Positions 6,508 to 62,521 are shown, counted from the stretch's first letter. The stretch: DNA of 64,000 nucleotides from an uncultured bacterium (GCA_963736115.1 CAVTNR010000008.1:64001-128000); one strand, 5' to 3'. Translations and numbers: made by a program. Notes: generated from the letters alone by a model not told the origin.

Positions 6508-6715
6508 ATCGGGCTGTCAGAAGCCCGCTTACCGTCTAAAATAGAATACCTGCAATTTGGTGAATGCGGGCTTCTGACAGCTCCGACGGGTCTGTTCCCC
6601 CGGCTTCGCCGGACCAAGCAATGAGATTTGTTCATTATTGAAGGCCCGCCTTTTATCTTCAATAATTCAAAAATATAATCGCTTGATCCCGCGAAGCGGG
6701 GCGGTGCCCTTCATC
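6508..6715 (+). repeat. Composite palindromic intergenic element, copy 1 of 4; carries two micro-element inserts (6600-6644, 6656-6700)
   Basis: ATCGGGCTGTCAGAAGCCCGC...GCGGGCTTCTGACAGCTCCGA inverted repeat; aligns by eye with 32774, 36247 and 62272. Confidence 0.85.
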
Positions 6716-6751
6716 CCATTTTCCTTTAATCCCCAGCTTCTTACGGCAGAG

Positions 6752-8694
6752 TCATCTAGTCCGAACGATTTTTCGGGTCCGGACCGAACGGTCCGTTTTC
6801 AGGACGAGCAGGTACACGCCGGCCGGGAGGTCTCCGGCCGTGAACGAAACACTGCGGCCGCCTTCGGCCGCGGATCCGGAACGGAGCGTGCGGACCCTGC
6901 GACCCAGACAGTCGTACAGGATCAGCGAGACGGTGCCCGCTTCCGGGAGCGTCCAGGCGACCGATGCGGAGCCGGAACGGGATTTGGGTGGATGTCCATT
7001 CCCGGTTCCGCCGTCGATCCGGTCCCGCGGTGCGCGGACGGACGAGGCCGTGTCAGGCGCCGGCCAGGTTCTTCCCGTCCAGGTCCCAGGCTCCGTTCGG
7101 CGCGGGAGTCCCATGTGGCAGTAGCGCGATGACGGCCAGGTCCGCGGTCTTAGCGGCCTCGGATGCGTCGAAATCAAGCGTGCCGCACCGTGTCGTTCAC
7201 GGCGATCCAGGCAGCGCCGGACCCGGAGAGGGCGCCGTCCGCGGCATGCGGCCCTGAATCCCGCGCCACGGTCCCGGATCCGTCGTTCATGCGCCAGGCC
7301 GCGGCCAGGGCAGCGGAGAAGGGATGGGCGTCATCATCCGGCCCAAGTTACCTCCGGTTTCCACCGGCCGATACATCCACTCCCGCAGAACCGAATCCGG
7401 CAGGGCCGCGGACCAGACCCTCACCTCGCTGACTGTCGACGGCCGCGAAATCCGGACGGCCGGCCGCGGCGTCCTGTCCGATCGCGATTCCGGCTGTTCC
7501 GTCCACGCTTCCCACCGCGGACCAGTCCGCGGCCGCGGTGCGGATTCCGTCCTGCATCAGGACGAGGCGGCCGCCCCGGTCGAAAACCGCGGCGATGTGG
7601 TGCCAGCGTCCGTCCGCGATCACGGGCCCGGAGACATTCGTCCGGACGGAGCCGTCCGCCGCGTTCACCCGCCATTTGCCCTCGTCGATGAGGTCGATGG
7701 AGAATCCCCGGTTGCGGTCGGACGATCCGTCCTTGTTGGAAATCAGAACCGGCCGGCCCGACCACCCGTTCGTGCGCACGCAGCATTCGATCGTGAAACC
7801 GGCGTCCGCGCCGAAACGGAACGCGGGCCGGTCCGGCGCGGAGACAAAGCCGCTCCGGCCGTCCAGCCGTATCGCATATTCCGGAACTCGCAGGCTGTCC
7901 GTCTCCCAGCGGTGCGGGTTCTCCCGCGGCCGTGTGCCGCCGCCGGAGACGATGAAGAAGGTCCGCATCTCCTCGAGCGTGGACCCGCCGTGATGCGTGC
8001 CGAGCCCCCCGTGGTCCGTGAGCGCGATGACCATCCAGTCCTCATCCGCGTATCCCGGCCTGGAACGCATCGCGGCCAGCACTTCGCCGACACGGCCGTC
8101 CGCGGTTTCGATGGCGTTCCGGTAAGCCATGTTGTCCGGATCGAATCCGGACGCGTGGCCTTCGGCGTCGATGGCGCCGAGTTGGACGAAGAGAGCGGCG
8201 GGATCCCCGTGGACCAGCAGGTCCACCGCGCGGTCGACCGTTCGTTCATCGGACCAGTCCCCGGCAGAGACATCCGCGCCGTGGGGCATGGCGGTGTTCA
8301 GGTCCGGCCAGTAGACGAACCATCCGGACGAAAAATCCGGATGCGCGTCCTTCAGCCTCCGGAACAGCATGGGAAAGAGATCGAACCGGCTGTTTGAGAA
8401 GGTGTTGTCCGTGACCCCGTGTTTGCCGTTCCAGACTCCGGTGAACACGGAGGACCAGCAGGGGCCGCTTTTTGTCGGCGGCCGGGAGAGGGCCCACCAG
8501 GAGAAGGCGCTCCCTTCGGCCAGGCCGGACAGATGAGGCGTAGAGCATAACAGCAGGGCGTCGGGTCTGCACCCGTCCACGCCGAGGATGAGCAGGCGGG
8601 ACGCGGCCGCGGGCGCCGGCGACAGTGCGGCGGCAAGCAGAACGACCGCCACGCCGCGAATGCAGGCGGATCCGATTTTTCTGAACCGGTTCAT
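6752..8694 (-). CDS. Secreted alkaline phosphatase/nucleotide pyrophosphatase-phosphodiesterase family protein with LamG domain and T9SS-type C-terminus (several indels 7000-7430)
   Basis: LILGVDGCRPD, TKSGPCWSS, IDAEGH and TDHGG..HGG motifs; LamG DGRWHHIAAVFDR; C-terminus ILYDCLGRRVRTL..LPAGVYLLVL..TRKIV. Confidence 0.82.
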
Positions 8695-8845
8695 GCGTAC
8701 AAGATACGAACGGGACGGAACCGAATCAAGGAGGATCTGGCGAGCCGAAATGATTTTTCGCTTGTTTCGGTGCATAGAGTCACTTATTTTATACAAGTTC
8801 CGAGGGCATTCCGCGGTTCACCCAGGATGAGGCTTCCATCCGGCC

Positions 8846-9877
8846 ATGAACGGCCACGCGTACACCGACATCGACCTGTGCTCCGTCATTCCGGCCCTTT
8901 GCGAGGGGTCGGTATCGGAGCGTGACACCGCGGCTTTCGCGAGGGTCTGCGTGCGGCTTTCCATCGCGACCCTGATGTTCCTGCAGTCGAGGGGTTACCG
9001 GATCATGGATGAGGCGGGAGGCGGCCCGTCGGTTGAGGATACGGCCGCGGATGCGGTGGCGGATCTCTTCGAGCGGGACGCCGCAGGGGAATACGTCCGG
9101 TTCCGCCGTTATTTCAGCCCGCACCTTGAAAAGACCGCATCGAACGCCGAATGGCTCGTGCTGCTTCGGCGGCTGGTGACGCGGCGCGTTCAGCAGGCCC
9201 TGTCGCGCGTGTTCCGGGAACGCGATCCCGAGGGTGCCCGGATCCGCCGCGGCCTGAAAATCGCCGCGCTGAAACACGGCCGGTGGAAACTCGAAACCGC
9301 ATTCGGCAGGCAGTGGATCAGGCTCGATCACGGCATTGTCCGCCCGGGAACCGGCGGCCTTTCCCTGCTGCAGGACGGACACCTCTCCGCTTTGGCCTGC
9401 GGCCGTTTCAATCCCCGCGACACTCTGCCCGTGATCCTCGACAAGCTTTCCGATTTCCTGATCGAGCATCCTGAACTGACGGCCCGAATCGAACTGAACG
9501 ACGCGGTGCGGCTCGTGCGCGGTTACCGGAAGGGCGCGGAACGGGCCGATGTGCCGCCGCCCTCCGAATCGCCTCTGTCTCCGGACCTGATCCAGGCGAT
9601 CGAGTCCGGACGCGACAGCCTGTTCCTGAAAATCCAAAGGGATTACAGGGCCAAAGGGAAACTCGATGAGAAAGAAGCTGAGGCTTTCCGGCTGGCCCTT
9701 TCGGACATGGTGGAGGATGTGCTCGCGGGCGACCCGCTGGGGCCTTATTTCGAGTATCTCCGCGTCCGTTTAAAGGGTTTGGATGAAGAACGCTACCGGA
9801 CCCAACTCCGTACAAAATTTGAATATATGGCCAAATTGCTGAAGCGGAAAATTGAAAGAGCGGTTTCTATTTTCTGA
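8846..9877 (+). CDS. Divergent ECF-like RNA polymerase sigma factor (putative)
   Basis: Region-2-like segments VEDTAADAVADLF and WLVLLRRLVTRRVQQAL; basic helical C-terminus; lies directly upstream of a zinc anti-sigma gene. Motif match is by eye only. Confidence 0.55.
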   Translation: MNGHAYTDIDLCSVIPALCEGSVSERDTAAFARVCVRLSIATLMFLQSRGYRIMDEAGGGPSVEDTAADAVADLFERDAAGEYVRFRRYFSPHLEKTASNAEWLVLLRRLVTRRVQQALSRVFRERDPEGARIRRGLKIAALKHGRWKLETAFGRQWIRLDHGIVRPGTGGLSLLQDGHLSALACGRFNPRDTLPVILDKLSDFLIEHPELTARIELNDAVRLVRGYRKGAERADVPPPSESPLSPDLIQAIESGRDSLFLKIQRDYRAKGKLDEKEAEAFRLALSDMVEDVLAGDPLGPYFEYLRVRLKGLDEERYRTQLRTKFEYMAKLLKRKIERAVSIF

Positions 9878-10013
9878 GGATTCGGGGAATGGGGGTATTA
9901 ATAAGATAGGAGTTCATAGAAAAAAATTTGTTGGAAAGCCGAATACATGGAGTTCACCCTTTAGGGTTTCATTGATAAAAGTGCCGATATAAACATGTCC
10001 GAAAGCCTCGCCT

Positions 10014-10056
10014 TCCCGCTTCGCGGGACCAATCGACAGATTCCCGCTATTGAAGG
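10014..10056 (+). mobile_element. 43-bp micro-element inserted in a hairpin between the sigma-like and anti-sigma genes
   Basis: T-CCCGCTTCGCGGG-ACCAATC-13 nt-TATTGAAGG. Removing it restores the hairpin GCCTGC-TTC-GCGGGC. Confidence 0.65.
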
Positions 10057-10111
10057 GCTTCGCGGGCTCGGCATTTCGGACCTACAAGTACTCAATTGTT
10101 ATAATTCAGAA

Positions 10112-10198
10112 TCCGGAACCTGGAACCCAGAACCTGGAACCCAGAACCCGAACGATCTCGACCATGAACTATGAACCATGAACTATGAACTATGAACT
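10112..10198 (+). repeat. Heptamer tandem repeats (GGAACCT/AGAACCC type, then ATGAACT type) running into the start codon at 10192
   Basis: ccggaacc tggaacc cagaacc tggaacc cagaacc, then atgaact atgaacc atgaact atgaact atgaact. Confidence 0.85.
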
Positions 10199-11067
10199 TG
10201 CAGGAAATGTTAAACTGCCCAGATAAAAACCGTATCGAGCTCTTCCTGCTCGGCGGCGTGACCGACGCTGCCGAGGCCGCACGGATTCGCTCGCACCTTT
10301 CCGCGTGCCCGGCCTGCAGGCTGGCCGCGGAAGAGGCCGAAGCCTTTCACCGGGTGGCCGGATCCATTCCCTCCGAACAGATCGACCGGATGGTCCGCCG
10401 GGTGCTGTCCGGAGCCGCGGTCGGGCCGGCCGTCGCAGGACGCGTTCTCGAGCTCAAACCGATGGCCCTGCCGGGGCATTCTCCACGCCGCACGCTCCTC
10501 GCCGCGGATCACGGCCCGACTGGCCGTTTCGAGCCGGTACAGACCTATGCCAATGTCGAGGCTGACCTCGTCGCCAGGCTCCTCAGGGACAATGCGTCCC
10601 GGGAACTGTCGCTCTATCTGGTCGAATCCGGGGGAGAGCCGGCCGCGAACCGCGTTCTCGAGATCGAGGGCCAGGAGGAACAATACGCCGCGGACGAGAC
10701 CGGCCGCGTGGAGCTTCAGGGTTTGTCCGAAGATGAACTGAAGGGGCGGACCCTCCGCATCCGCTCCTCCATCGCGTTTTTCGATCTGGCGCCGGTGCAG
10801 GATCTCCGCGAGCGCATCCGTTTTGAAGGTCATTACGCGCTGCGGAACGCGGAATTCGACGAAATCCGCATTGAGACCGAGGAGGCGGAGGGCCGCACAC
10901 TCACGCGCATCCGGATTGAAAAGATACGCGGAGCCGGGGCGACGGCTGTCGTGGGCGTGAGTGTTTCGAGGCGCGGCGACTCTCCGCTGACCTCGCCCGT
11001 GGTGCGGGGCGCGGCTGTGTTCGAAGAGCTGGACCCGGAGCGGATCCTGAAGATCCGGATTTACTGA
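10192..11067 (+). CDS. Soluble zinc-binding anti-sigma (ZAS/zf-HC2) domain protein with beta-rich C-terminal domains
   Basis: N-terminal Cys followed by HLSACPAC (HxxxCxxC); no TM helix; linker contains RRTLLAAD. Confidence 0.75.
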   Translation: MNLQEMLNCPDKNRIELFLLGGVTDAAEAARIRSHLSACPACRLAAEEAEAFHRVAGSIPSEQIDRMVRRVLSGAAVGPAVAGRVLELKPMALPGHSPRRTLLAADHGPTGRFEPVQTYANVEADLVARLLRDNASRELSLYLVESGGEPAANRVLEIEGQEEQYAADETGRVELQGLSEDELKGRTLRIRSSIAFFDLAPVQDLRERIRFEGHYALRNAEFDEIRIETEEAEGRTLTRIRIEKIRGAGATAVVGVSVSRRGDSPLTSPVVRGAAVFEELDPERILKIRIY

Positions 11068-11120
11068 ACGGTTCCGGCCGACCGGCATCCGGAACCGGGG
11101 CCCGGGGAAACCATGAACGC

Positions 11121-13427
11121 ATGAAAACCATCGAACTCGAACAGGCGCGCTGCCGCCTGGCGGAACGCCTGGCCGGACCCGCTTCCGGCCATGAAAAACT
11201 GACGTTCATCGTCCGCTTTTTCAGGGCCGCCTCCCCGCAATTCAGCGTGGACGCCCTCCGATCGTACCATCTGGAGTTCTCCTCCCCCTTTTTGAAAACA
11301 GCTTCGGCCGCGGCGCTCGCCAACCGGCCTCCCGGATTTCTGCTGAACACGCTCGAATTGGTCCGCGTGTACCGCGAGCGGTTCGCGGACGACACCGCGG
11401 CCGACGATCTCGATCGCGCGGAGCGCGCCTGCCGGCTGGCTTTGCTGGAGACAGCCGTCGTGCTCGGCGAATGGGGGCCGGCCCGCGAATCGCTCGAAGC
11501 CCTGTCCGGCGAACGCCTGCCTGCGGAACCCGCGGACACGGAGGGTTCAGCGTCGCATTATCCCCTTGAAGCCTGCGGGAAACTGGCCGCGAGTCTGATC
11601 GGGCCCTGTCCCGCTGCGGCCGGCATTGTGCAATCCGTCGCGGACCGCTGGTCTTCGGAATTCGGGGGACAGACCGGGGACCGGCTGTGGCTTCTGTTCG
11701 CGCAGAAGGCGGATGAGAACGGGCCGGCGCATTCGGAGCCGGACTGCGGCTTCCTGATCGCGGCCGGACTCCGGACACGGGTCCGGCTCCACCCCGACGC
11801 AGCGGACGATACGATACGGCTGAACAACGACTGGGTGTCCCGATCGGAGCCGTTCCACAGGCTCATCCGGGACGCTTTGACCTCCATGCGGCCCATACTG
11901 GCGAAAACCGGGTATGCGGCGCCTTCGGATCAGCACGGCCACTTTCTGTTCGCCCTGTCCGAAAGGGAGGCGGCGTTTTACGGCAGGTCCCTGGAAGCGC
12001 CCCTGGCCCTTCTGGCCGCGGGCGGGCTGGTGAACGGTTACTACGGCCGGCCGCTCGTCCTGTTCCCAAATAGTACGGCCGTGACCGGCGGCGTGGACGG
12101 AGAAGGCCGCATTCTGCCCGTGGACAAGGACGGGTTGAAGGCCAAGCTTCATGCGGCTTTTTTCTCGCCCCTCAGACGCGTCGTGGTGCCGTGGCCGAAT
12201 CTCCAGGAAGCCGTTTCCGTCATCGAGAAGCTCCGGATTTCCCATCCGAACCGCAGACTCGATCTGCAGAGCGCGGATACGCTCGAAGCGCTCTGGAACG
12301 ACCGCAATGTCGCTGAGGCCGGACGAGTCACGACAGCGGTCAGGCTGACCGCGGGCCTGAGGCGGAACCGGAATCGGATCGCCTGGTCCGCGGCCTGGGC
12401 CGGCATTCTGCTCACCAGCGCCCTTCTGCTTCTGCCCCTGCTATGGCGGGACAGGAATCCCGCCTCGATCGACGTTTCCGGATCGGTGCTCGTGGCGAGG
12501 AGCGCGGGAGGCCGGGAATTATGGAAGTACGATTTCGGTGTCCCGCTGACGCGAAACCGTTATGCGGATCCTTCTCTCCGGGTTCGCGTTACGGATGCGG
12601 ACGGCGACGGCAGGCGGGAGGTGCTGTTCGGAGTCTATGAATCGACCGATCTGGGCGCGCTGAATGGATCGATTTTCCTTTTCAGCGCGGATGGGGATGT
12701 CCGTCTCCGCCTGAAAACGGGGCGGGCCATGAAATTCGGCGGTGCGCTCTACGAGGACCATTACCGCGTGGCGTTCGCGGACGCGGTCGATCTGGACGGG
12801 GACGGAGTGAAGGAGATTGTGTCGATTTCCTTCCATTATCCCGATTATCCCTGCTGCGTGAACGTCTGGAGCCTGTCCGGGGAGAAGCTGGGCGAGTACT
12901 GGCATTCCGGACAGCTGGAAAAGGCTGAGTACATTGACGCGGACGGGGACGGGGTCCGGGAACTGTTCCTGGCCGGTCAGAACAATGAATACCGCTGTGC
13001 CGTACTGGCCGTTCTCAAACCGCCCCGTCTGACCGGGGCCTCGCCCCAGACCCCGGCCGGCCATTACCGGGCGGAAGGGCTCGAAACAGGCGGGGAGATG
13101 CAGTATGTCCGTTTTCCGAAGAGCGTCCTAAGTGAACTGGCCTTGAACCGGGACACGGCTCTACATGCGGAGGAAAACAACGGACGAATCCGCGTGGGTC
13201 TGGCGAATCCGGCCGCATCGGCCGGCGGCACGCAATCTCATTTTATCTATTACGTTTTCGATCCGCGGTTCCGCCTTCTCGACGTGGACGTCGGGGACTG
13301 TTATTTCAGCAGGGTGTTTGAACTCAGGGGAAGGCCCCTGACCGATTCGGAACTGTCCAGGCCCGTCCTCCGTTTTGACGGGAAAGGATGGTCGCAAATT
13401 GAACAGGTTCGGGCCGGGTTGGAATAA
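11121..13427 (+). CDS. Lon (S16)-type protease domain + single TM helix + FG-GAP/VCBS-like repeat ectodomain; no AAA+ module
   Basis: FYGRSLEAPLAL (Ser290) and AVTGGVDGEGRILPVDKDGLKAKLHAA (Lys342) parallel DGPSAG and [25 protein letters not shown] of the Lon in this window. TM helix at about aa 420-442 after RRNRNR; three DxDGDG motifs. Confidence 0.8.
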   Translation: MKTIELEQARCRLAERLAGPASGHEKLTFIVRFFRAASPQFSVDALRSYHLEFSSPFLKTASAAALANRPPGFLLNTLELVRVYRERFADDTAADDLDRAERACRLALLETAVVLGEWGPARESLEALSGERLPAEPADTEGSASHYPLEACGKLAASLIGPCPAAAGIVQSVADRWSSEFGGQTGDRLWLLFAQKADENGPAHSEPDCGFLIAAGLRTRVRLHPDAADDTIRLNNDWVSRSEPFHRLIRDALTSMRPILAKTGYAAPSDQHGHFLFALSEREAAFYGRSLEAPLALLAAGGLVNGYYGRPLVLFPNSTAVTGGVDGEGRILPVDKDGLKAKLHAAFFSPLRRVVVPWPNLQEAVSVIEKLRISHPNRRLDLQSADTLEALWNDRNVAEAGRVTTAVRLTAGLRRNRNRIAWSAAWAGILLTSALLLLPLLWRDRNPASIDVSGSVLVARSAGGRELWKYDFGVPLTRNRYADPSLRVRVTDADGDGRREVLFGVYESTDLGALNGSIFLFSADGDVRLRLKTGRAMKFGGALYEDHYRVAFADAVDLDGDGVKEIVSISFHYPDYPCCVNVWSLSGEKLGEYWHSGQLEKAEYIDADGDGVRELFLAGQNNEYRCAVLAVLKPPRLTGASPQTPAGHYRAEGLETGGEMQYVRFPKSVLSELALNRDTALHAEENNGRIRVGLANPAASAGGTQSHFIYYVFDPRFRLLDVDVGDCYFSRVFELRGRPLTDSELSRPVLRFDGKGWSQIEQVRAGLE

Positions 13428-13459
13428 CCGGTTCCCATCCGGACTGCGGCACGGACCCG

Positions 13460-13481
13460 GGGCCCTTGAGGGCCTTTTTTT
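13460..13481 (+). terminator. Possible intrinsic terminator after the Lon-TM gene
   Basis: GGCCC-TTGA-GGGCC followed by a T run. Confidence 0.5.
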
Positions 13482-13733
13482 ATTGGATTTTCTGCGGCAA
13501 GCCGGGATGTTGCTATGTAAAGGTATCGGCGGGAGCAATCATACGGTCAATCAGGTTGACAAAGCCGAATGTCCATTTACCGGAATTTGAATTTTCACCC
13601 CCCCGGGCCCCCTCCCTTGCACCAGGGAGGGGGCGGGCCGGGGGATGCGGAATCGAAAAGCAGATCCGGCCATCCGGCCAGGAAAGGGGACAGGGAGCCG
13701 GCTGAGCCGGTCGGAGGCCGCCCCGGATCCCGG

Positions 13734-14024
13734 ATGATGCATTTCGAGATGGAACTGCCGGGTGTGCTCAACTGGAAATTCAGCACACTCGATGAGGCCG
13801 TGAGCCGGACCCTTCGGCTGATGATCCGGTCGGTGCCGGTCGCGAGGATTTACAACCTGAATGAGGACGGTGAAAGGGAGGGAATTTCCCTGTGGCTGGA
13901 AAAATGCGGTGTCGCGTGCCCGTCCTGCCTCGAGGATGAAGCCGTGGTCTTGATGTCCGGCATACCGGAGCAGTACGATGAACTGGCGGTGTGCCGGAAA
14001 TGCCAGTGCTCGTTTAAATTATAG
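13734..14024 (+). CDS. Small hypothetical protein with two CxxC pairs (probable zinc ribbon)
   Basis: CPSC...CRKC; GGAGG upstream; followed by a terminator. The ORF-track extension to 13569 looks non-coding. Confidence 0.6.
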   Translation: MMHFEMELPGVLNWKFSTLDEAVSRTLRLMIRSVPVARIYNLNEDGEREGISLWLEKCGVACPSCLEDEAVVLMSGIPEQYDELAVCRKCQCSFKL

Positions 14025-14061
14025 GATCCGTGTAACCTGCCAAGCCTCCTTGTCCTCTGTC

Positions 14062-14094
14062 AAAGGCGGGTTCCTTCGGGGACCCGCCTTTTTT
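14062..14094. terminator. Bidirectional intrinsic terminator
   Basis: AAAGGCGGGT-TCCTTCGGG-ACCCGCCTTTTTT between convergent genes. Confidence 0.75.
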
Positions 14095-14212
14095 ATGATC
14101 GCAATCGGAATCACTGATCGCCCGGGATTTTTATCCCGGGCATAGTCGAAAGAAAAAACTCCCGCGGGTTTTTCATGCCCGCGGGAGTTTTTCGCGATAA
14201 CGCAAAAAGGGG

Positions 14213-15055: not shown

Positions 15056-15120
15056 CTTGTTGCTCGTTTGATATTCATGAACCACTTTTCTAAATACGGC
15101 AATCCGAAACCGCTTTCTTG

Positions 15121-15203
15121 AGTTCATAGTTCATGGTTCATCGTTCATAGTCGAAGGAAGCTTGGATTTTTTTCTATGGACCATGAACTATGAACTATGA
15201 ACT
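15121..15203. repeat. Inverted pair of heptamer arrays (AGTTCAT)n...(ATGAACT)n inside the ABC operon
   Basis: agttcat agttcat ggttcat cgttcat ... atggacc atgaact atgaact atgaact. Confidence 0.85.
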
Positions 15204-16093: not shown

Positions 16094-16096
16094 GCG

Positions 16097-17377: not shown

Positions 17378-17389
17378 GGCGGAAGTCCG

Positions 17390-32774: not shown

Positions 32775-33060
32775 TCGGGCGGCCAGAAGCCCAAGCTTCC
32801 GGGTGGTGTTATTTAGAATGATCGGAGTGCGGGCTTCTGGCCGCTCCGACGAGTCAAATTCGCCGTCGCTTCCCTTCAATAATTCAATAGGGATATTGAT
32901 TGGTCCCGTGAAGCCTTCAATAAAATTAATCCGTTGATTGGTCCCGCAACGCGGGACGGGGCGGCGGCGATAATCCAAATTTCTTGTGAACCCCCACCGT
33001 CCGGCAAAGCCGGACCAAGCAGCCAGATGCGATTGTATTGAAGGCTTGCGGTGGGGTCAC
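32774..33060 (+). repeat. Composite palindromic element, copy 2; three micro-element inserts, one nested
   Basis: Same long IR. Inserts at 32873-32960 (interrupted by 32914-32956) and 33000-33044. Confidence 0.85.
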
Positions 33061-36131: not shown

Positions 36132-36246
36132 GATAAACAGCTGAGGGTTTCAATCGGGGTTCGGTAAAGCCGGATACGGAATTCACCCTTCAGGGTTTCA
36201 TCCTGGAAAACCTCCCGCGGTGGATTGAGAAACCGCGGGAGGTTCC

Positions 36247-36542
36247 ATCGGGCGGCCAGAAGCCTGTTCATTCTGGTTCCAATTTTACTGGATGATCGGA
36301 GATTGGGCTTCTGGCCGCTCCGACGGGTCTGATTCTCCGGCCCCGCGATGCGGGATCAAGCTACAGATGCCGGCTATTGAAGACTTCGCCGGACCAAGCA
36401 ATGAGATTGATTCATTAATGAAGGCCCGCCGCTTGCCTTCAATATGATAAAAAATTATAATAGCTTGGTCCCGCGCAACGGGACGGCGTCCATCATCCAA
36501 GTTTCTTGTGATACCCCGCTGCTTGCGGCGGGGTCTTTCATT
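36247..36542 (+). repeat. Composite palindromic element, copy 3; three micro-element inserts, one nested
   Basis: Inserts at 36337-36424 (interrupted by 36341-36383) and 36436-36483; ends GATACCCCGCTGCTTGCGGCGGGGTCTTTCATT. Confidence 0.88.
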
Positions 36543-36687
36543 GTGAAAAGCCGGAGAAACAGAAGGCATCCCCGTCAGGCCGGGGCAAGGGGGGATGCGT
36601 TTCGAGAATGAAACCGCGTTTGCTCCGGACAGCCGGAATGCGCCGGTTCAGCAGAAAGTGTCATTACCTATCCGAAGGGAGTCCGTC

Positions 36688-47043: not shown

Positions 47044-47426
47044 ATGGAACGCGGACCTTCGGCGGATGAGACGGATTTGAACGGATCAGAAATGTGGAAT
47101 AGGATAATTGTTTCAATCAAATGAATGTCATCTTCGCATTATCACAAATGTCATCCCCAGCAAAGCTGGACCAAGCTATTAGATTGATACATCGTTGAAG
47201 GCCCGCATTCTTTTAACGGGGATCCAGGGGACGGGTGCGGGATGGGAAGGAACACGGATCGCGCGGAGGGGCGGATTGGCGCGGATCGAGAATGATCAAT
47301 CGGGTAATGCATTCATTATAATCAATGTCATCCCCGCATTCTTTTAGCGGGGATCCAGGGGAGAGGTGTGGGATGGGAAGGAACGCGGATTGCGCGGATG
47401 GGACGGATTTCTCCGGATCAAGAATG
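47044..47426 (+). repeat. Tandem composite REP-like units; first palindrome interrupted by a 46-bp micro-element (47156-47201)
   Basis: 47147-47295 and 47324-47426 align except for the insert; 47044-47110 resembles 25733-25797. Confidence 0.85.
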
Positions 47427-52395: not shown

Positions 52396-52437
52396 CGCGC
52401 CTCCCGGGAGAGGCCGGCCGACTCCGGGGGAAGCGGC

Positions 52438-53845: not shown

Positions 53846-53902
53846 GCTGTCCGTATAGAAAAACGATTACCTTCTTTCAAATAAAGGTAATCGTTTATTT
53901 TC

Positions 53903-53929
53903 GTAGGGGCGACGCGCCGCGTCGCCCCT
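53903..53929 (+). repeat. GTAG-type REP palindrome
   Basis: GTAGGGGCGACGCGCCGCGTCGCCCCT. Confidence 0.7.
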
Positions 53930-53972
53930 GCGATGGCTTGAAGCGTCCGACGGCTTCGGAATACGCAAACAA

Positions 53973-54829: not shown

Positions 54830-55734
54830 ACATTCTCCCTGCCGGAAAAATCGAGCTCGCTTTCGGAAGCGCCGTGTTCCAGTTCGTACAGCGATTTCCG
54901 TCTCGATTCCAGATCCAGGATTTCCTCTCCCCGGTATTCCGCGGCCGTCTGGAGCACTCCGGCCTGCTCCATCGCCGCCTGGAACAGGGGCTCGGCTTTG
55001 CGCCGCCACTCCGGGTCCCGGAGGGGATGGTGGTCGTACAGGATGCGCCGGCTTCCGGATTCGGAAATCAGGCGGCGCATCCGGCGGATCAGCTGAGACG
55101 TGGCGGGCCGCCGGACACCGCGCTCGGCCGGATTCGAGTCCGGGCCGTCGAGGTACAGCACCGACGGCTTCGCGGACGCGAGAAACAGCGCGGTCGGTTC
55201 CGGATAGACGCCCTTCGCGGCCGAGGAAAATGCGAACGATTCATCGTCTTCGGTGACGACCAGCGGGATGGCGGCCTCGCGGGGGTCGGCCGGTCCGGCC
55301 GGGACGAAGTCGCCGAAGGCGATGCGGCAGGCGCCGGCGGAGAAGGCGGTTCCGTCCGCGAATACGATTTCCTCGCACAGGTTCCGCGCGGTTTTCAGGA
55401 AAGCGAAGGCGCGGGTGCGGCTTTCAGGGGAGAGACAGAGATTGGGATTCTTCACCAGGAGCCGCTTGCCCTTCATCCATTCGGGCGACTCGAACCGGAC
55501 ATGCTCCGGATCCCAGCGGGTGACGGCGATGATGCGGGCGGTCTTGGCGAACAGCGAGATGCGGCTGAGCGCCTTGTCCAGGCGGTCGGTTTCAAGGGGG
55601 TGGGGCGGAAGGCCGCGGCGGCGTTCCGCCAGGACGGCGCCGGGATCGATCAGGATTCCGGCGCCGCGGCCTTCCACGAAAGTGGCCATCGAACGGACGC
55701 CCATGGAGTCCGCGGCGAGCGGGATGATCTGCAT
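54826..55734 (-). CDS. UPF0282-like MBL-fold protein
   Basis: MQIIPLAADSMGVRSMATFVE, ILIDPG, RRGLPPHP, YDHHPLRD. Confidence 0.8.
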   Translation of the reverse strand: MQIIPLAADSMGVRSMATFVEGRGAGILIDPGAVLAERRRGLPPHPLETDRLDKALSRISLFAKTARIIAVTRWDPEHVRFESPEWMKGKRLLVKNPNLCLSPESRTRAFAFLKTARNLCEEIVFADGTAFSAGACRIAFGDFVPAGPADPREAAIPLVVTEDDESFAFSSAAKGVYPEPTALFLASAKPSVLYLDGPDSNPAERGVRRPATSQLIRRMRRLISESGSRRILYDHHPLRDPEWRRKAEPLFQAAMEQAGVLQTAAEYRGEEILDLESRRKSLYELEHGASESELDFSGRENV

Positions 55735-55813
55735 GTCGAGCGTCGCTCCCGTAAATGAAAAGGGTTTTGGCGGCCGCGGCCGCCAAAACCCGGACTTCCG
55801 CGTTCCGGAGGGT

Positions 55814-57073
55814 TTACGTCCCGATCTTCCAGGACGAGAGGTATTCCTTCTGCTCCTCGGTGAGCTCGTCGATGCGCACGCCCATCGATTCAAGCTTCAG
55901 CCGGGACACCCAGTCCTCGATCTCGGCCGGGACGTCGTAGACCCGCGTCTCCAGCTTGCCCGCATTTTGGACGACCCATTCGGAGCACATCGCCTGGGTC
56001 GAGAAGCTCATGTCCATCACGCTGGCGGGATGCCCCTCGGCCGCCGCGAGGTTGATGAGCCGGCCCTCGGCCAGCACGCGCAGGCACCGGCCGTTCGGCA
56101 GAACGAATTCATCGACGTTCCGGCGCACCCCGGTGCGCGTTTCTTTTGCCATCTTTTTCAGCGCGTCCAGGTCGATTTCAACGTTGAAGTGGCCTGAATT
56201 CGCGAGAATCGCCCGGTCCTTCATGACCTCGAAATGCTCCTTGCGGATCACGTGGATGTCGCCGGTCAGGGTGCAGAAGAGGTCCCCGATCTTCGCGGCC
56301 TCGTCCATGGGCATGACCGGGAATCCGTCCATCGCGGCCTCGATGGCCTTGATCGGGTCGACTTCGGTCACGATCACGTGCGAACCCATGCCCTTGCAGC
56401 GCGCGGCGAAGCCGCGGCCGCACCAGCCGTACCCCGCCACGACGACCGTCTTGCCCGCGAGCAGGATGTCCGTCGCCCGGATGATGCCGTCCACCGTGGA
56501 CTGCCCGGTGCCGTAGCGGTTGTCGAACAGGTTCTTGGTCTTGGCGTCGTTCACCGCAACGACGGGGATTTTCAGCGAATGGTCGGCGGCCATGGCGCGC
56601 AGGCGGATCACGCCCGTGGTCGTCTCCTCCATGCTACCGAGGATTTCCTTCGTCTGGTCCGGGTAGTCGAAATGAATGGTGGACACGAGGTCGGCGCCGT
56701 CGTCCATGGTCACATGGGGCCGGACCTCGATGGCCGTTCGGATGTGGCGGTAGTACATGTCCTTGTCCTCGCCGCGCACCGCGTGCACGGCGATGCCGTA
56801 TTCCTTCACCAGCGCGGCGGCCACGTCATCCTGGGTGGAGAGCGGATTGGAGGCCACCAGGCAAACGTCGGCTCCGCCGGCCTTGAGGGTCCGGACGAGG
56901 TTGGCGGTTTCGGCGGTCACGTGCAGGCACGCGGACAGGCGCTTGCCCGCGAACGGTTTTTCCTTCTCGAAGCGCCTGCGGAGCAGATTGAGAACGGGCA
57001 TGTCCTGGTCGGCCCATTCGATGCGGCGCTTCCCTTCCGCGGCGAGCCCGGGGTCCTTGATTTCAAAATTCAT
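55814..57073 (-). CDS. ahcY: Adenosylhomocysteinase
   Basis: CLHVTAETA, SNPLSTQD, EETTTG, FDNRYGTGQS, GYGWCGRG, AEGHP. Confidence 0.97.
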   Translation of the reverse strand: MNFEIKDPGLAAEGKRRIEWADQDMPVLNLLRRRFEKEKPFAGKRLSACLHVTAETANLVRTLKAGGADVCLVASNPLSTQDDVAAALVKEYGIAVHAVRGEDKDMYYRHIRTAIEVRPHVTMDDGADLVSTIHFDYPDQTKEILGSMEETTTGVIRLRAMAADHSLKIPVVAVNDAKTKNLFDNRYGTGQSTVDGIIRATDILLAGKTVVVAGYGWCGRGFAARCKGMGSHVIVTEVDPIKAIEAAMDGFPVMPMDEAAKIGDLFCTLTGDIHVIRKEHFEVMKDRAILANSGHFNVEIDLDALKKMAKETRTGVRRNVDEFVLPNGRCLRVLAEGRLINLAAAEGHPASVMDMSFSTQAMCSEWVVQNAGKLETRVYDVPAEIEDWVSRLKLESMGVRIDELTEEQKEYLSSWKIGT

Positions 57074-57198
57074 TATTATTTCCTTGTTTTAAGATGATGC
57101 CCGTGCCGCATCCGGCGGGAAATGCCGTTCCTGCGGCCGGATCGGCGGACCTGCAAGGCCGGACCCGGCCGGCTCCGGTCCGGCCGGGACGGGTCAGA

Positions 57199-58335
57199 CT
57201 AGGCCTTGATCAGCTCTTCCGTGCGGTCCGTCTTTTCCCAGGTGAATTCAGGCTCGGTCCGTCCGAAATGGCCGTAAGAGGCCGTCTTGCGGTAAATCGG
57301 GCGGCGCAGGTTCAGACGCTCGATGATGCCCTTCGGCCTGAGGTCGAACACCTTCTTGACCTTGCGTTCGAGCTCGGCGTCCGACACCTTGCCCGTTCCC
57401 TGGCTTCGGACAAGCACGGATACCGGCTCGGCCACGCCGATGGCATAGGCGAGCTGCACCGAGCACCGGTCCGCCAGACCCGCGGCCACCACGTTCTTGG
57501 CGACCCAGCGGGCGGCGTAGCATGCCGAGCGGTCCACCTTGGTCGGATCCTTGCCCGAGAAGGCGCCGCCGCCGTGGCTCTCGTATCCGCCGTAGGTGTC
57601 GACGATGATCTTTCGGCCGGTCAGCCCCGTGTCGCCGTGGGGCCCGCCGATGACGAAGCGGCCGGTCGGGTTGATGTGGGTTTTCAGCTTCTTCGGGTCC
57701 GTGAGCTCCGCGGGCAGAACCGGCAGGATCACCCTCTCGAGCACGTCCTTCCGCAACTGCTCGATCGACGGGTCCGGATCGTGCTGGGTGGAGATGACGA
57801 CGGTGTCCACGGCCACCGGCTTGTGTCCCTCGTACAGGATGGTCACCTGGCTCTTGCCGTCCGGCCGCAGGTAGGGAAGAATTTTCTCCTTGCGCACATC
57901 GGCCAGCCGGCGCGTCAGCTTGTGGGCCAGCATGATCGGAAGGGGCATGAGTTCCGGCGTTTCATTGGCCGCGAAGCCGAACATCATGCCCTGGTCGCCC
58001 GCGCCCTCGCGGTCGACGCCCATCGAAATGTCGCCGGATTGCCGCTGAATCGTGTTCAGCACGGCGCAGGTCTCGTAATCAAAGCCGTAGTGCGCGTTGG
58101 TGTACCCGATGTCCATGACGACCTTGCGTACCAATTCGGGAATGTCCACGTAAGTTTCCGTCGTGATCTCTCCGCCCACCAGGACCATGCCGGTCGTCAC
58201 GTAGGTTTCGCACGCCACGCGGCCCTTGGGGTCGTCGGCCATCACGGCGTCGAGAACCGCGTCCGAGATCTGGTCCGCGACTTTGTCCGGATGCCCCTCG
58301 GTCACCGATTCGGAAGTGAAGGGATGCAGTTCCAT
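57199..58335 (-). CDS. metK: Methionine adenosyltransferase
   Basis: [28 protein letters not shown]. Confidence 0.97.
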
Positions 58336-58364
58336 TGAAAACTCCTGTTCAGGGGGTGAGGCCG

Positions 58365-59429
58365 TCACTGGCCGAGTTTTTTCTTGAGAAAATTGATGTT
58401 CTCGATCTCCGTCGGGTCCGCGCCGTTCAGCACCGCCAGGTACAGGCTGACCACGTCGCCGAGATGCACGAGGTAGAGCAGGCGTTCGAAGGCCGTCGCG
58501 CCTTTGGCCTGCGCCTCGAACGCCTTGCCCCGGTTCTTCTCCACCAGGCCGCGGATGACGTTCATTCTCAGCTTGACGCGCGGGTGCTCGTCCGGCGAGC
58601 GCAGCAGCACCGCGGCCAGCGCGCCGTAATACGGTTTCGTGGCGGCCAGCCGCTTCCATCCCACGATCTCGTTATGGCACATCTCGGGGACGGCCAGGAC
58701 GGCCGCGTGGATCTTGCTGTTCTCGTTAAACTGACATTTCCATCGGAAGCCGACGGATTCGAGCGACCCTTCGGCCGCGGAGATCAGCGGGAACCGGCCC
58801 TTGAGTTTTTTCGCCAACTGGGCCGCCGCGTTGCTTTTATTCTTCAGATCCGCCAGTTTCGCGCTTTCACGGGTCATGAACGCGGCCGCGCGGTTAAAGG
58901 CCTCTTTTGATACGGGGCTCACTCCGAACCCGTCGAAAATTTGGAGCAGGACTCCCAGGCTGAAGCCCAGGGCCGAACGCGGTGGGTATCCGGCCGGTAT
59001 GAGAACCCGGTCGAGATGTTTCGATTCCGCGATTTCCGCGATGCGGCCGCCGGAGGTGACGCACAGCACCCGGCAGCCCCGCCCGACGGCCTGCTCCGTC
59101 GCGGAGAGGGTCTCCTCTGTGTTGCCGGAATAGCTCGACGCGATGAACAGGGTTCCGCTGTCCGCGAAAGCGGGCAGGTCATAGCCCCGGTTCACGGTCA
59201 TCGGCACCCGCAGGCCCGCGCCCAGGACGGACTTGAGGATGTCGCCGGCAATGGCCGACCCGCCCATTCCGCTGAACACGATGTTCCGGATCGAGCCGAA
59301 ATCGATGGAAACGGGCGACGCCTCGGCGATGGCCCAGCCTTTTTTCAGCTGATCCGGGAATTCAAGGATCTTGGGAAACATGGAGGACCGATCGGCGGTC
59401 CGGATGGATTTGATGTTGAGGGTGGCCAT
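58365..59429 (-). CDS. Bifunctional phosphoglucose/phosphomannose isomerase
   Basis: [42 protein letters not shown]. Confidence 0.92.
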
Positions 59430-59693
59430 TCATTCCTCGTGAAATTTGTCGTTCAGGAGTTTCTCGATGGCGTCCAGGACCTCGGTCTCCTGGGGCCCCT
59501 TGGCGCGAAACGTGAGACTGCTGCCCTGTTCCGCGGCCAGCATCAGGACGCCCATGATGCTCTTGGCGTTGATCGAATTGCCGTTCTTGATGACCTGCAC
59601 CTCGGCGTCGAACCGGGAGGCGGTTTCCACCAGAAGGGCCGCCGGCCGCGCGTGCAGGCCGAGTTTGTTCTGTATCTTTAGTGTGCGTTCCAT
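59430..59693 (-). CDS. ptsH: PTS phosphocarrier HPr
   Basis: NKLGLHARPA (His15); NAKSIMGV (Ser46). Confidence 0.95.
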   Translation of the reverse strand: MERTLKIQNKLGLHARPAALLVETASRFDAEVQVIKNGNSINAKSIMGVLMLAAEQGSSLTFRAKGPQETEVLDAIEKLLNDKFHEE

Positions 59694-59758
59694 GTGGTCT
59701 TTCAAATTAATAAAACTTTCTATTTTAGCAAATCTTTTGAATAAAATCAAGAACAATG

Positions 59759-59787
59759 TTGACATTGAATGAATTTGTCAGTATATT
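59759..59787 (+). promoter_or_regulatory. Sigma70-type promoter for hppA
   Basis: TTGACA-N17-TATATT; a TGACA-N11-TGTCA palindrome overlaps it. Confidence 0.7.
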
Positions 59788-59881
59788 TATCGTCTAAATT
59801 TGTGTTTTCGGGCATACCCTAAGTCATTGGTATACCTGAAAATAGAATCCATCCCTTTCCACAAGGAGGTTTAATCCACCT

Positions 59882-62187
59882 ATGCTGCAAGGTCTGACCC
59901 CGTTTGAACAGGTGGCGATTCTGTGCGTTCTCGGCATCGCCATCCTGGGTCTGCTCTACGCGCTGATGCTGCGCAGGCAGATTCTCAAGGAAGACCGCGG
60001 ATCGGCTAAAATGATCGAAGTCTGGACCGCGATCCGCGACGGCGCCGACACCTATCTGAAGCGCCAGCTCAAGTCCATTCTGCCGCTGATCGGGATCCTG
60101 GTCGTGGCCCTCTTCCTCTCCGTGTACATCGTGCCCCCCTCCGCCGAGGCGATGGAACGCTTCGCCGGCCTGCCCGAGGAGACGGTCCGGCTGATCATCG
60201 GTTTCGCGCGGGCCGTGGCCTTCGTCATGGGCGCCGGCTTCTCCCTGATGGTCGGTCAGCTCGGCATGCGCATGGCCGTGCAGGCCAATGTGCGCGTGGC
60301 CGCCGCGCGCCCGCAAGTCGTTCGGCGACGCGCTGCGCATCGCCTACCGCGCCGGCACCGATCACCGGCATGCTGACCGACGGCCTGGGGCTGTTCGGCG
60401 GCACCATCGATCTTCATCGTACTCGGCATCGCCGCTCCCGACGCCCTGCTCGGCTTCGGCTTCGGCGGCACGCTGCTGGCGCTGTTCATGCGCGTGGGCG
60501 GCGGCATCTACACCAAGGCCGCCGACGTGGGCGCCGACCTGGTCGGCAAGGTCGAAGCGGGCATCCCGGAGGACGACCCGCGCAATCCGGCCGTCGTCGC
60601 CGACCTGGTCGGCGACAACGTCGGCGACTGCGCCGGCATGGCGGCCGACATCTTCGAATCCTACGAAGTGACCATCGTCTCCGGCCTGATCCTCGGCCTG
60701 GCGCTGTTCCACTGACCGGCCACATGGAATGGATCATCTTCCCGCTGCTCGTGCGCGGCATCGGCGTGCTCTCTCGATCATCGGCACGTACGTGGTGACG
60801 GGCGGACCGGGAAAGAGCGGCGACGCCATGACAGGCCATCTTCCGCGGCTTCTTCACGTCGGCCGCCATCTCGATCGCGCTGTTCGGCGCGCTGGCTTAC
60901 TTCTACATGTCCGGCATGCCCGGCGGCTGGTGGCGGCCCTTCGCGGCCGTCGCGATCGGCGTGATGCTGGCCATCGCTCATCGACCGGCTGACCGAGTAC
61001 TTCACCGGCACCCACAACGCGACCGGTCAACGAGATCCGGGATGCCACGAACACGGGTCCGGCCACGCTCATTCTGCACCGGCCTCGCCGTGGGTTTTGA
61101 ATCGACCGTCTGGTCGGTCCTCGTCATCGCCGCTCACCATCTTCGGCTCCATCCTGATCTTCGGAACCATGGATGGCTTCGTTCACCGAGACGGTCACGT
61201 ACATCCTGTACGGCGTGGCCATGACCGGCATCGGCATGCTGACCCTGACCGGCAACAACGTGGCCATGGACTCGTTCGGTCCCATCGCGGACAACGCGAA
61301 CGGCATCGGCGAGATGGCCTGGTCCGGCAAGAAGGACAAGTCGACCGTCGAGGCCCGCCAGATCATGGCCGACCTGGACGCGGTCGGCAACACAACCAAG
61401 GCCATCACCAAGGGCGTGGCCATCGGCTCCGCGGTCATCGCGGCCGTTTCTCTGTTCGGATCGTTCATGACCGACGTCTCGCAAGATCGGATCCCATGGC
61501 GCTCGCGATCGGCATCCGCGTGTCAGAGCCCATCGTGTTCGTGGGCATGCTCATCGGCGGGGCCCTGCCGTGGCTGTTCTCGTCGTTCTGCATTCAGGCG
61601 GTCAGCCGCGCGGCTTCGCTGATCGTCGAGGAAGTGCGGCGCCAGTTCAAGGCCGGCGTGCTGGAGGGCAAGGTGAAGCCCGATTACCGGGCCAGGCGGT
61701 CAAGATTTCCACCACCGCGGCGCAGAAGGAGCTCGTCAGTCTGGCCCTTCTCGGCGTCGTGACCCCGGTGGTCGTCGGCCTGGTGTTCAAGGTCGAGGCG
61801 CTGGGCGGGTTCCTCGCGGGCATCATCGTCTCCGGTCAGCTGCTGGCCGTGTTCATGTCGAACGCCGGCGGCGCCTGGGACAATGCCAAGAAAATGATCG
61901 AGGACGAACCCCGCGACCCGAAGAAGAACACCGGCAAGGGTTCCGAGCGCCACAAGGCGAGCGTGGTCGGCGACACGGTCGGCGATCCCCTGAAGGATAC
62001 GGCCGGACCGGCGCTGAACCCGATGATCAAGGTCGTGAACCTGGTGTCGCTGATCATCGCGCCCATCGTGGTCCAGTACCAGGAACTCGGCTGGGCCGGA
62101 TGGGTCGTCGTCGGCGTGCTGCTGGCCGGCCTGGTCTGGGCGATCGGAAACAGCAAGAAACCCGTGCCGTCTCTCGTGAAGAAGTAA
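59882..62187 (+). CDS. hppA: Membrane-bound ion-translocating pyrophosphatase, K+-independent signature; many indels 60310-61700
   Basis: [46 protein letters not shown] and [10 protein letters not shown] are all intact but spread across frames. Confidence 0.92.
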
Positions 62188-62221
62188 AAAAGCGGCATCC
62201 GGTTTTTCAGGACGTTTTCGA

Positions 62222-62257
62222 GGGCGGCCCCGTTTCTGGGGCCGCCCTTTGTTTTTC
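62222..62257 (+). terminator. Intrinsic terminator after hppA
   Basis: GGGCGGCCCC-GTTTCT-GGGGCCGCCC-TTTGTTTTT. Confidence 0.75.
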
Positions 62258-62271
62258 AGCGGGATTTTTCT

Positions 62272-62521
62272 ATCGGGCGGCCAGAAGCCTGGTCATTCTG
62301 GTTCCAGTTTTTCTGTATGATCGGAGATTGGGCTTCTGGCCGCTCCGACGGGTCTGATTCCCCGGCTTCGCCGGACCAAGCAATGAGATTTGCTCATTAT
62401 TGAAGGCCCGCCGCTTGCGGCGTCCATCATCCAAGTTTCTTGCGATACCCCGCTGCTTGTCTTCAATAATTCGTAAATAGAATAGCTTGATCCCGCGAAG
62501 CGGGCGGCGGAGTCCTTCATT
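62272..62521 (+). repeat. Composite palindromic element, copy 4; two micro-element inserts (62362-62406, 62460-62504)
   Basis: Near-identical to 36247-36542 apart from insert content. Confidence 0.88.

Follow-up and report, generated by a model that had tools for sequence, protein, structure and literature searches.

Members of the IS200/IS605 family transpose through a single-strand circle intermediate, and their insertion is biased to the lagging strand. As set out in the sections of the account drawn upon here, recognition in this family depends on hairpins and the cleavage sites are set by pairing with bases at the hairpin foot; bases 5′ of the hairpin were reported to select the cleavage site both in IS200/IS605 and in one REP system, and the transposon DNA to take part in target choice (PMC8266576). 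REP and REPIN repeats, according to the parts of two accounts cited here, are believed to owe their movement to a single-copy HUH enzyme that acts in trans on folded single strands, and they persist long within a lineage (PMC8266576; PMC3116915). Two further systems involve GC-rich palindromes or REP hairpins: the GTAG-23 REPs of Thermomicrobium roseum are regularly located within small palindromes that are rich in GC and have the pattern CCGSSCC-n3,4-GGSSCGG (Di Nocera et al., 2013), and IS110-family elements insert into REP hairpins, one of them, ISPpu9, mobilising the small gene-less module ssr9 in trans as a circle (PMC12288879).

The element described here was found in a 64,000-nt stretch of DNA from an uncultured bacterium (the window) and in relatives of that bacterium. 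It is a tiny gene-less DNA repeat of 42–46 nt with one small hairpin, and very probably a mobile one that has been inserted into the tips and feet of other hairpins. Mobile-looking repeats of well below 100 nt without a known enzyme have reportedly been found before, in the cyanobacterium Nostoc, where small dispersed repeats (SDR) of 21–27 nt are said to have been presented by Elhai et al. in 2008 as 'very small mobile repeated elements'; their likeness to the present element is by description only.

Like REP and REPIN repeats, the element is short, gene-less, intergenic and present in many copies (113 intact and 10 split copies in the window's genome), it has a GC-rich hairpin with a fixed short motif at its foot, and it shares with them the long persistence within a lineage mentioned above. 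It differs from them in that it carries no GTAG/CGTC tag (the opposite strand has TTGRT), whereas the true REPs of the same genome carry GTAG; in that it is asymmetric, a hairpin with a tail of about 30 nt and a second fixed end instead of a palindrome or doublet; and in that no RAYT gene is flanked by it, as would be expected for a REPtron. Besides, exact insertion into hairpin loops and self-nesting are absent from the REP description in the parts of the two accounts cited (PMC8266576; PMC3116915). With IS200/IS605 elements (IS608, ISDra2) and their gene-less derivatives it shares the absence of inverted ends and of target duplication; hairpin-dependent recognition, cleavage sites set by pairing with bases beside the hairpin foot, and a share of the element's own DNA in target choice may be common to both. 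The differences are that the element has one 5′ hairpin, not two subterminal hairpins, that it uses no fixed target word of 4–5 nt but only a C after the insertion point in a hairpin context, that it shows no strand bias, and that neither TnpB nor a full-length parent with tnpA/tnpB and the same ends was found in the window's genome, which is 87% complete. Furthermore, one of its inferred cleavage sites is located directly at the hairpin foot, unlike in IS608, where cleavage is not known to occur there. The lack of terminal inverted repeats and target site duplications also separates it from a classical MITE. The T. roseum GTAG-23 REPs are similar in being REP-type repeats inside small GC-rich palindromes, but exact junctions, nesting and covariation of ends are unreported in the part of that account used here (Di Nocera et al., 2013). 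ISPpu9 and ssr9, as far as described in the extract cited, are kilobase elements or an sRNA gene and form double-stranded circles, whereas the element is 45 nt long (PMC12288879).

Structure and copy number of the repeat

The unit was found to consist of (N)-CCSGC-NNN-GCSGG-A-Y-CAAKC, followed by a 14-, 16- or 17-nt core and by TTGAAG-R. All 12 copies that the original prediction had placed in the window were recovered at the same coordinates and on the same strands, and its description of them as intergenic was confirmed, since each of the 12 lies between Pfam-supported genes or beside ORFs without a Pfam match. The copies, and the larger repeat blocks that host some of them, are as follows.

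6599–6644, + strand: 17-nt-core copy (CCGGC stem, Y=C, R=G) within a larger inserted repeat block, where it is located at the 5′ foot of the following hairpin
6656–6700, − strand: 17-nt-core copy (CCCGC stem, Y=T, R=A)
10014–10056, + strand: short-core (14-nt) copy inserted into a GTAG-type REPIN (about 9997–10085), in the central loop; one empty-site paralog with one mismatch
32873–32960, − strand: outer copy, its own 5′ hairpin split by the nested copy 32914–32956
32914–32956, − strand: short-core copy nested at CCCG^C within the outer copy's hairpin, with one additional T at its 5′ end
33000–33044, + strand: copy with one additional T at its 5′ end, inserted at G^CTTG of a hairpin that is intact and without insert at the orthologous site of the sister species G002
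36337–36424, + strand: outer copy with CCGGC stem, split by the nested copy 36341–36383
36341–36383, + strand: nested short-core copy in the hairpin of the outer copy; four empty-site paralogs with at least one mismatch
36436–36483, − strand: copy with one additional T at its 5′ end, in a hairpin with CAAG loop of which the window has an empty version at 62401–62436; empty paralog with 0 mismatches
47156–47201, + strand: copy located downstream of an alpha-L-fucosidase gene, its stem being CCAGC/GCTGG and its right end, CGTTGAAGG, diverged
62361–62406, + strand: CCGGC-stem copy located at the 5′ foot of a hairpin with CTTG loop and sharing type and flank context with 6599–6644; 10 empty-site paralogs, the best with 0 mismatches
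62460–62504, − strand: CCCGC-stem copy in a hairpin with CAAG loop of which the window has an empty version at about 36515–36535
6509–6764, no strand: larger non-coding repeat block hosting the copies at 6599–6700; the whole block is missing at the orthologous site in G001 and G003
36249–36542, no strand: host block of the same kind with four copies; missing at the orthologous site in G002, with unrelated sequence there in G001
62274–62521, no strand: host block of the same kind with two copies; base-exactly missing at the orthologous site in G002

A genome-wide pattern search, as proposed in the original prediction, showed about 120 good copies in the genome of the window. The strict pattern GGGAYCAAKC-N13-19-TTGAAGR gave 96 matches in this genome; the same pattern reversed, used as a chance control, gave none there and one in all 41 genomes searched. 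The copy number is thus far above chance expectation. With a broader expression 151 matches were obtained in the whole genome: 113 had an intact hairpin (5-bp stem, at most one mismatch), 10 were outer copies split by a nested copy, and the 28 outside these classes included several that resemble chance matches in coding DNA. Within the window, a loose regular expression recovered 11 of the 12 copies, missing 47156–47201 with the right end CGTTGAAG. An nhmmer profile search recovered 10, including this one (as 47157–47201), and the two that it missed (33000–33044 and 36341–36383) were found by the regular expression. The element was present in 12 of 31 genomes from the same bacterial order, all of them independent assemblies. 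Viral contigs contained no match to the strict pattern. The element does not match any described Rfam 15 family at gathering score: no such match was obtained in the 64-kb window, the best sub-threshold match in 36150–36600 reached 20.8 bits compared to a gathering score of 80.6 (E up to 5), and for a related locus searched at E up to 5 the matches were likewise far below threshold.

Covariation was analysed in an alignment of 217 copies, all of which contain the hairpin-adjoining motif A-Y-CAAKC (TTGRT on the other strand) by which they were selected. The covariation of stem bases noticed in the original prediction held in this larger set, positions 3 and 11 being C-G in about 179, G-C in about 30 and A-T in about 5 of the 217 copies (mutual information 0.665 bit). 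A further pair, reported here as a new point, links the two ends of the element: the base two positions past the hairpin (Y) pairs with the last base (R) in 210 of the 217 copies, with the states C-G in 122, T-A in 88, T-G in 5 and C-A in 2. The mutual information of this pair (0.78 bit) is above that of the stem pair, and both states occur inside each of the three largest core clusters. The Y/R state is not tied to the variable position in front of the hairpin, which may be missing or be T or C. RNAalifold predicted the 5′ hairpin as the sole conserved fold in all three length classes, and on the end-joined permutation the stem was extended by G-C and R-Y.

Insertion sites and target classes

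Paralogous empty sites were found for 38 of 90 copies (blastn-short; 36-nt joined flanks with at most three mismatches), many of them with 0 mismatches to the joined flanks and none with a duplication, in agreement with the earlier statement that the element has neither terminal inverted repeats nor a target duplication. In a distant family, another host repeat, AAAAGAAC^CAAAAG..., was present in 17 empty and 19 filled versions: 8 empty and 15 filled in G026, 7 and 4 in G023, and 2 and 0 in G028. Exact filled and empty sites were therefore available within the genome, between species and in another family, and they bear out the view of the element as a very small gene-less insertion-like unit. 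Insertion is base-exact and without target duplication, and it has been repeated in several lineages of one bacterial order. In addition, 9 of the 217 copies are located head-to-tail directly behind another copy, i.e., at that copy's left cleavage site. Logan contigs from relatives (word shares of at most 0.13) contained a joint from 36339 to 36484 that corresponds to the empty form of the host repeat; these are probably paralogs of other organisms, and they were not counted as polymorphism. Neither an end-joined junction nor a circle was seen in the contigs of relatives.

Targeting was found to favour hairpins without being purely structural. The junction of 5′ arm and loop of a hairpin was the insertion point of 59 of the 113 intact copies, compared to 379 of 5000 random G^C sites in the window's genome, which supports the structure-specific targeting of the original prediction. 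On the other hand, 24 of the 113 copies directly precede a CCCG that forms the 5′ foot of a hairpin, the target in the other family is AAC^CAAAAG next to an AT-rich hairpin, and the base after the insertion point is C in 198 of 217 copies. Arm/loop targets are G^CAAG, G^CTTG or, within the hairpin of another copy, CCCG^C-NNN-G. The suggestion that insertion occurs just before a 3-nt loop was found to apply to the short-core class only, the commonest target overall being the CAAG (or CTTG) loop.

Core length goes with the type of target, which is a new point. Among 44 copies of the short-core class, 22 are inside the hairpins of other copies and 2 in CAAG/CTTG loops; in the classes with 16- and 17-nt cores none of 173 copies is nested, CAAG/CTTG loops harbour 74, and 51 are found at a CCCG foot. 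Of the 27 copies with a CCGGC stem, 24 are at the foot. The larger repeats multiply with element copies inside them, and since copies thus also spread as passengers, these per-class numbers are not counts of independent events. The variable core, for which the original prediction had no explanation, now has a lead because its length class follows the target class. Base pairing between core and target was looked for by eye in the short-core class, where the cores vary without matching changes in the target. Strand bias relative to GC skew was absent, with 28 + and 27 − copies in regions of positive skew and 31 and 27 in regions of negative skew (Fisher p 0.85), although passenger copies inside larger repeats may blur such a bias.

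Enzyme candidates and possible routes of movement

No enzyme gene was found inside or beside the copies, as the original prediction had expected for the window, and in the second family no conserved gene adjoins the element. A long parent copy with the same ends was not found in the 87%-complete genome: for 114 of 115 left ends the expression or visual inspection gave a right end with the usual spacing, and the remaining one, on contig 7, is diverged. The same genome gave no match to TnpB (PF07282). Three of its proteins pass the NCBIfam cut-off for REP-associated tyrosine transposases, and all three Y1 matches in the genome are of this RAYT type and not of the IS200-type TnpA. Each of the three RAYT genes is flanked by GTAG-tagged REP/REPIN repeats of its own and not by the element, the nearest copies of which lie at distances of about 2 kb, 12 kb and more than 25 kb. 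Close orthologs in each of the genus's four species exist for just one of the three, and the nearest relatives of this one in the rest of the order belong to genomes that lack the element. Co-distribution was rejected as a link: a Y1 match was present in 12 of 12 element-positive genomes, but as it was also present in 36 of 41 genomes overall, the comparison is uninformative. One IS110-family gene passes its NCBIfam cut-off as well. Of the two kinds of mover proposed in the original prediction, the HUH/RAYT-like one is not linked to the element by flanks or distribution, and the IS110-like one is not linked to it by its ends.

The best reading of these results is that a single-strand element is moved by an HUH-type enzyme, to which we give a probability of roughly 0.45. 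The non-autonomous element would travel as single-stranded DNA, and a hairpin-recognising HUH (Y1 tyrosine) enzyme supplied in trans would cut and rejoin it, as the IS200/IS605 and REP-associated transposases do. The excised strand would be joined end to end, so that its last two bases (G-R) could pair with the Y-C that follows the hairpin, making the hairpin longer by two pairs. On the opposite strand the pentanucleotide TTGRT would then lie 5′ of the hairpin, where IS200/IS605 and REP families keep their 'guide' or GTAG tag, with its R covarying with the base at the far cleavage site. The target may be chosen partly by the element itself, since the subfamilies differ in target class. The small size, the lack of inverted ends and of duplication, the single covarying hairpin, the Y/R pair, the head-to-tail copies and the three RAYTs in the genome speak for movement by an HUH-type enzyme. 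Against it stand the lack of a linked enzyme and the RAYTs' own GTAG repeats; the absence of strand bias, the junction helix gaining only two pairs, and the extra 5′ base that is not tied to Y/R; and the missing GTAG/CGTC tag, the one hairpin instead of two, and the cleavage site right at the hairpin foot. If an end-joined hairpin and targeting encoded in cis are true, the element could serve as a minimal model for hairpin-guided insertion of single-strand DNA. A bolder version, which we regard as doubtful, is that this is the smallest self-defining bacterial transposable element: a 45-nt strand that closes on itself by a self-templated two-pair extension of its hairpin, whose core length would direct it in cis either to 3-nt-loop hairpins, its own included, or to CAAG loops and hairpin feet, and whose mover would be a non-RAYT or housekeeping hairpin enzyme.

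That the element is mobile but depends on some other recombinase acting in trans appears unlikely; this could be an RNA-guided enzyme of the IS110 type, a tyrosine or serine recombinase that works on folded DNA, or a member of an unrecognised family. The REP-hairpin insertions and the mobilised module of ISPpu9 referred to above provide a precedent in the cited extract (PMC12288879), the genome has its own IS110-family gene, no RAYT tracks the element, and strand bias is absent. However, the IS110 locus is AT-rich (0.25–0.5 GC) and contains neither a CCSGC-NNN-GCSGG hairpin nor a pair of end motifs spaced like a copy; this single IS110 shares no end motifs with the element and was rejected. 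Besides, a double-stranded circle of 45 bp would be sterically implausible.

Still less probable is spread without any dedicated enzyme, by gene conversion among similar hairpins or by microhomology-driven template switching at hairpin-stalled replication. The hosts indeed belong to repeat families themselves, alike in their arms and sharing the CAAG loop, subfamilies keep to one target class as homology-driven copying would give without a guide, and a strand bias is lacking here too. Nevertheless, 21 of 35 near-identical element pairs (at most two differences) are in hairpins of which both arms differ, with exact boundaries, and the same ends are found in GC hairpins, in a REPIN loop and in an AT-rich repeat of another family. 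Furthermore, ends, stem and Y/R pair are kept across an order while the core drifts, which points to selection for recognition by a machinery.

An RNA route, in which a small structured transcript is copied back into DNA, is very improbable. The exceptions to Y/R pairing are mostly T-G (5 of 7), a wobble pair in RNA, but a search of the 87%-complete genome for reverse transcriptase (PF00078) gave no match, the Rfam matches were all far below threshold, and the conserved fold is limited to one 5-bp hairpin. A host-selected motif kept in place, such as a protein binding site or a terminator variant, would fit the intergenic position of all copies and their conserved ends, but can practically be dismissed in view of the filled and empty sites within and between genomes, the nested copies and the lineage-specific positions.

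Taken together, filled and empty sites that are exact to the base, chains of nested copies, a covarying pair connecting both ends and subfamilies with distinct target classes make up unusually clean natural evidence, and these features reduce the question to a small set of oligonucleotide experiments. For the assembly and annotation of MAGs there is a practical warning, as copies accumulate in intergenic hairpins and break contigs. A scan of a wider collection of genome contigs showed at least 79 stretches with the element pattern, those listed being from MAG records.

Structure and distribution of the micro-element

The source assembly comprised 3.34 Mb in 31 contigs (~60% GC, completeness rated 87%), and the window corresponds to bases 64001–128000 of contig 8. 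All 12 copies of the micro-element listed for the window in the original prediction were confirmed on reading six regions; a loose expression recovered 11 of them, a profile search 10, and both combined recovered all 12. Two of the listed spans were outer copies, the hairpin of each being split by an inner copy. The unit was organized as an optional base, CCSGC-NNN-GCSGG, A-Y-CAAKC, a core and TTGAAG-R, with an extra 5′ base (T or C) in some subfamilies and none in others. Among 217 distinct copies, core lengths of 16, 17 and 14 nt occurred in 88, 77 and 38 copies, respectively, and the remaining lengths fell within 12–20 nt. Many 17-nt cores contained TATAAT on the minus strand (e.g., window 6656–6700 and 36436–36483), so that a −10 box oriented towards the hairpin might be provided by some copies; visual inspection revealed no suitably spaced −35.

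The pattern GGGAYCAAKC-N13-19-TTGAAGR had 96 matches in the window genome, and the remaining three species of the genus had 56, 63, and 38. Outside the genus, a genome from another family contained 14 matches and seven further genomes of the order contained 1–3 each, and the other 29 of the 41 genomes searched contained none. Carriers made up 12 of the 31 genomes of the order in the collection, and a backwards-pattern control gave one match in total across the 41 genomes. A broader expression gave 151 matches in the window genome (113 copies with an intact hairpin, 10 split outer copies, and 28 unclassified). Since the family is shared by independent assemblies, the copies are not assembly artefacts, a possibility that the original prediction had raised.

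Insertion into hairpins and choice of target

Four lines of sequence evidence indicate that the micro-element is an insertion. The 18 nt flanking a copy on the left and on the right were joined, and the resulting 36-mer was sought elsewhere in the genome; 38 of 90 copies gave such a match, with no more than 3 mismatches and frequently with 0. These joined-flank paralogs showed no target duplication, as predicted from the window, and the insertion boundaries were exact to one ambiguous base. The paralogous blocks at window 36249–36542 and 62274–62521 showed reciprocally filled and empty hairpins, and the sister species G002 (~89% DNA identity) contained an intact hairpin at the spot matching copy 33000–33044. 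In the second family of the order, the repeat AAAAGAAC^CAAAAG... was empty in 8 cases in G026, 7 in G023 and 2 in G028, and filled by a 45-nt copy at the same position in 15, 4, and 0 cases, respectively. The micro-element family is real and mobile, and belongs to the REP / IS200/IS605-like world of hairpin repeats.

Non-coding host repeats carrying the micro-element
Window 6509–6764, 36249–36542 and 62274–62521: host repeat, ~160 nt without passengers, ~28 genome copies
Window genome, e.g., C27 ~116635–116780: second repeat, ~140 nt, its halves present in 57 and 38 copies
Loci L005–L009, L019–L048 and L121–L123, in second-family genomes G019, G023, G026 and G028: conserved host repeat, ~300–450 nt

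Whole host blocks (window 6509–6764 and 62274–62521) were missing at the orthologous sites of sister species, and many copies have thus multiplied as passengers. With copy counts including such multiplication and not equalling event counts, 59 of the 113 intact copies were located exactly at the junction of 5′ stem arm and loop, compared to 379 of 5000 random G^C sites; 24 preceded CCCG at a hairpin's 5′ foot and 30 were elsewhere. The first right-flank base was C in 198 of 217 copies, and the first four bases (113 intact copies, window genome) were CAAG in 44, CCCG in 27, CTTC in 9 and CTTG in 4. Target class tracks core length: of 44 short-core copies, 22 lay within another copy's hairpin and 2 in CAAG/CTTG loops, whereas nesting was absent from the 173 copies whose cores measured 16 or 17 nt (74 in CAAG/CTTG loops, 12 at CAAAAG, 51 at a CCCG foot). 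Of the 27 copies with a CCGGC stem, 24 occupied the foot. Most CAAG-loop hairpins are supplied by two other non-coding repeat families, both themselves mobile-looking.

At one intergenic spot (window 32873–32960; G002 contig 128, L096), the two species contained different copies in different orientations, which suggests rapid turnover at a single site.

Covarying ends, candidate enzymes and proposed mechanism

The second base beyond the hairpin (Y) covaried with the last base of the unit (R) in the 217 copies (108 from the window genome, 109 from others): C-G in 122, T-A in 88, T-G in 5 and C-A in 2. Mutual information was 0.78 bit, compared to 0.665 bit for the covarying stem pair. The three largest core clusters each contained both states, and the covariation therefore does not simply reflect two lineages. 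For the linear unit, RNAalifold predicted the 5′ hairpin alone; with the right end placed before the left end, the stem gained G-C and R-Y across a one-base bulge. This lengthening may point to an end-joined form, either circular or tandem. Head-to-tail tandems accounted for 9 of the 217 copies.

The original prediction proposed mobilization in trans by an enzyme encoded outside the window, with HUH/RAYT-like and IS110-like enzymes as candidates. We favor the HUH alternative (probability roughly 0.45), in which the single-stranded unit would be cut and rejoined. This reading draws on the small size, the absence of inverted ends and target duplication, the single essential hairpin, the head-to-tail tandems and the subfamily-specific targets, and on the pairing of a base by the hairpin foot with a base at a cleavage site. 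Together, these features fit IS200/IS605 and one REP system, for which PMC8266576 describes a cut selected by bases 5′ of the palindrome. Doubt arises because no enzyme is linked to the unit, because it lacks the GTAG tag of REPs, and because it has one hairpin where IS200/IS605 has two; the lack of strand bias relative to GC skew also counts against an HUH enzyme. REP-type repeats within small GC palindromes are noted for Thermomicrobium roseum in PMC3733652. The main texts of the literature searched contained no description of the motif set, of base-exact hairpin-loop insertion with self-nesting, or of the end covariation.

The window genome contained three Y1 HUH genes, all above the NCBIfam cut-off for REP-associated tyrosine transposase (RAYT). 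Each was flanked by its own repeats (two GTAG, one GGAG-like; ~56, 29, and 6 copies), and none of the three by the micro-element. Only one was represented throughout the four species of the genus by close orthologs (70–77% identity), and its next relatives (~35%) were mostly in genomes without the micro-element. Another, at C17 75009–75746 of the window genome (L001), encodes a RAYT-type protein with a long extension at the N-terminus (246 aa); its flanking repeat has only ~6 genome copies, and the sister species yielded no close ortholog. Among 115 left ends, 93 were followed by a canonical right end within 60 nt and 21 by a mutated right end at the usual spacing; the last left end was diverged, and no long parent copy with micro-element ends was found.

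That some other recombinase moves the unit is unlikely. IS110 elements entering REP hairpins are described in PMC12288879 as able to mobilize a small module, but the one IS110 element of the genome showed nothing in common with the unit and was rejected as its source. This single gene for an RNA-guided transposase (C14 86661–90077, L004) adjoins sequence of 25–30% GC, compared to 60% for the genome, and probably represents a recent insertion of foreign origin. Template switching among similar hairpins, with no enzyme involved, is less likely still: 21 of 35 near-identical element pairs were in hairpins differing in both arms, which would be hard to obtain by gene conversion. An RNA route is very improbable, as no reverse transcriptase was found in the 87%-complete genome. 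A search of that genome for TnpB was also negative.

Further features of the host repeats

A long inverted repeat, with arms that vary compensatorily between copies, opens the ~160-nt host repeat. Given the absence of whole blocks from orthologous sister-species sites, the host repeat itself resembles a mobile unit or structured RNA gene. The ~140-nt repeat has similar TTGAA-type ends in inverted orientation, its left end opening with TTGAAG, the word that closes the micro-element; the CAAG loops of its two GC hairpins are both micro-element hot spots. The ~300–450-nt repeat of the second family contains an AT-rich hairpin of 11 bp along with several others, with the micro-element inside the repeat, and showed no Rfam match and no conserved neighboring gene. 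A classical REPIN family, GTAGGTCCGA... (56 matches), was found at window ~9997–10085 and at C19 57396–57902 and flanks (L003), where it surrounds the RAYT gene conserved across the genus's four species. In at least two species, one short-core micro-element subfamily is carried within these REPINs, in their central loop.
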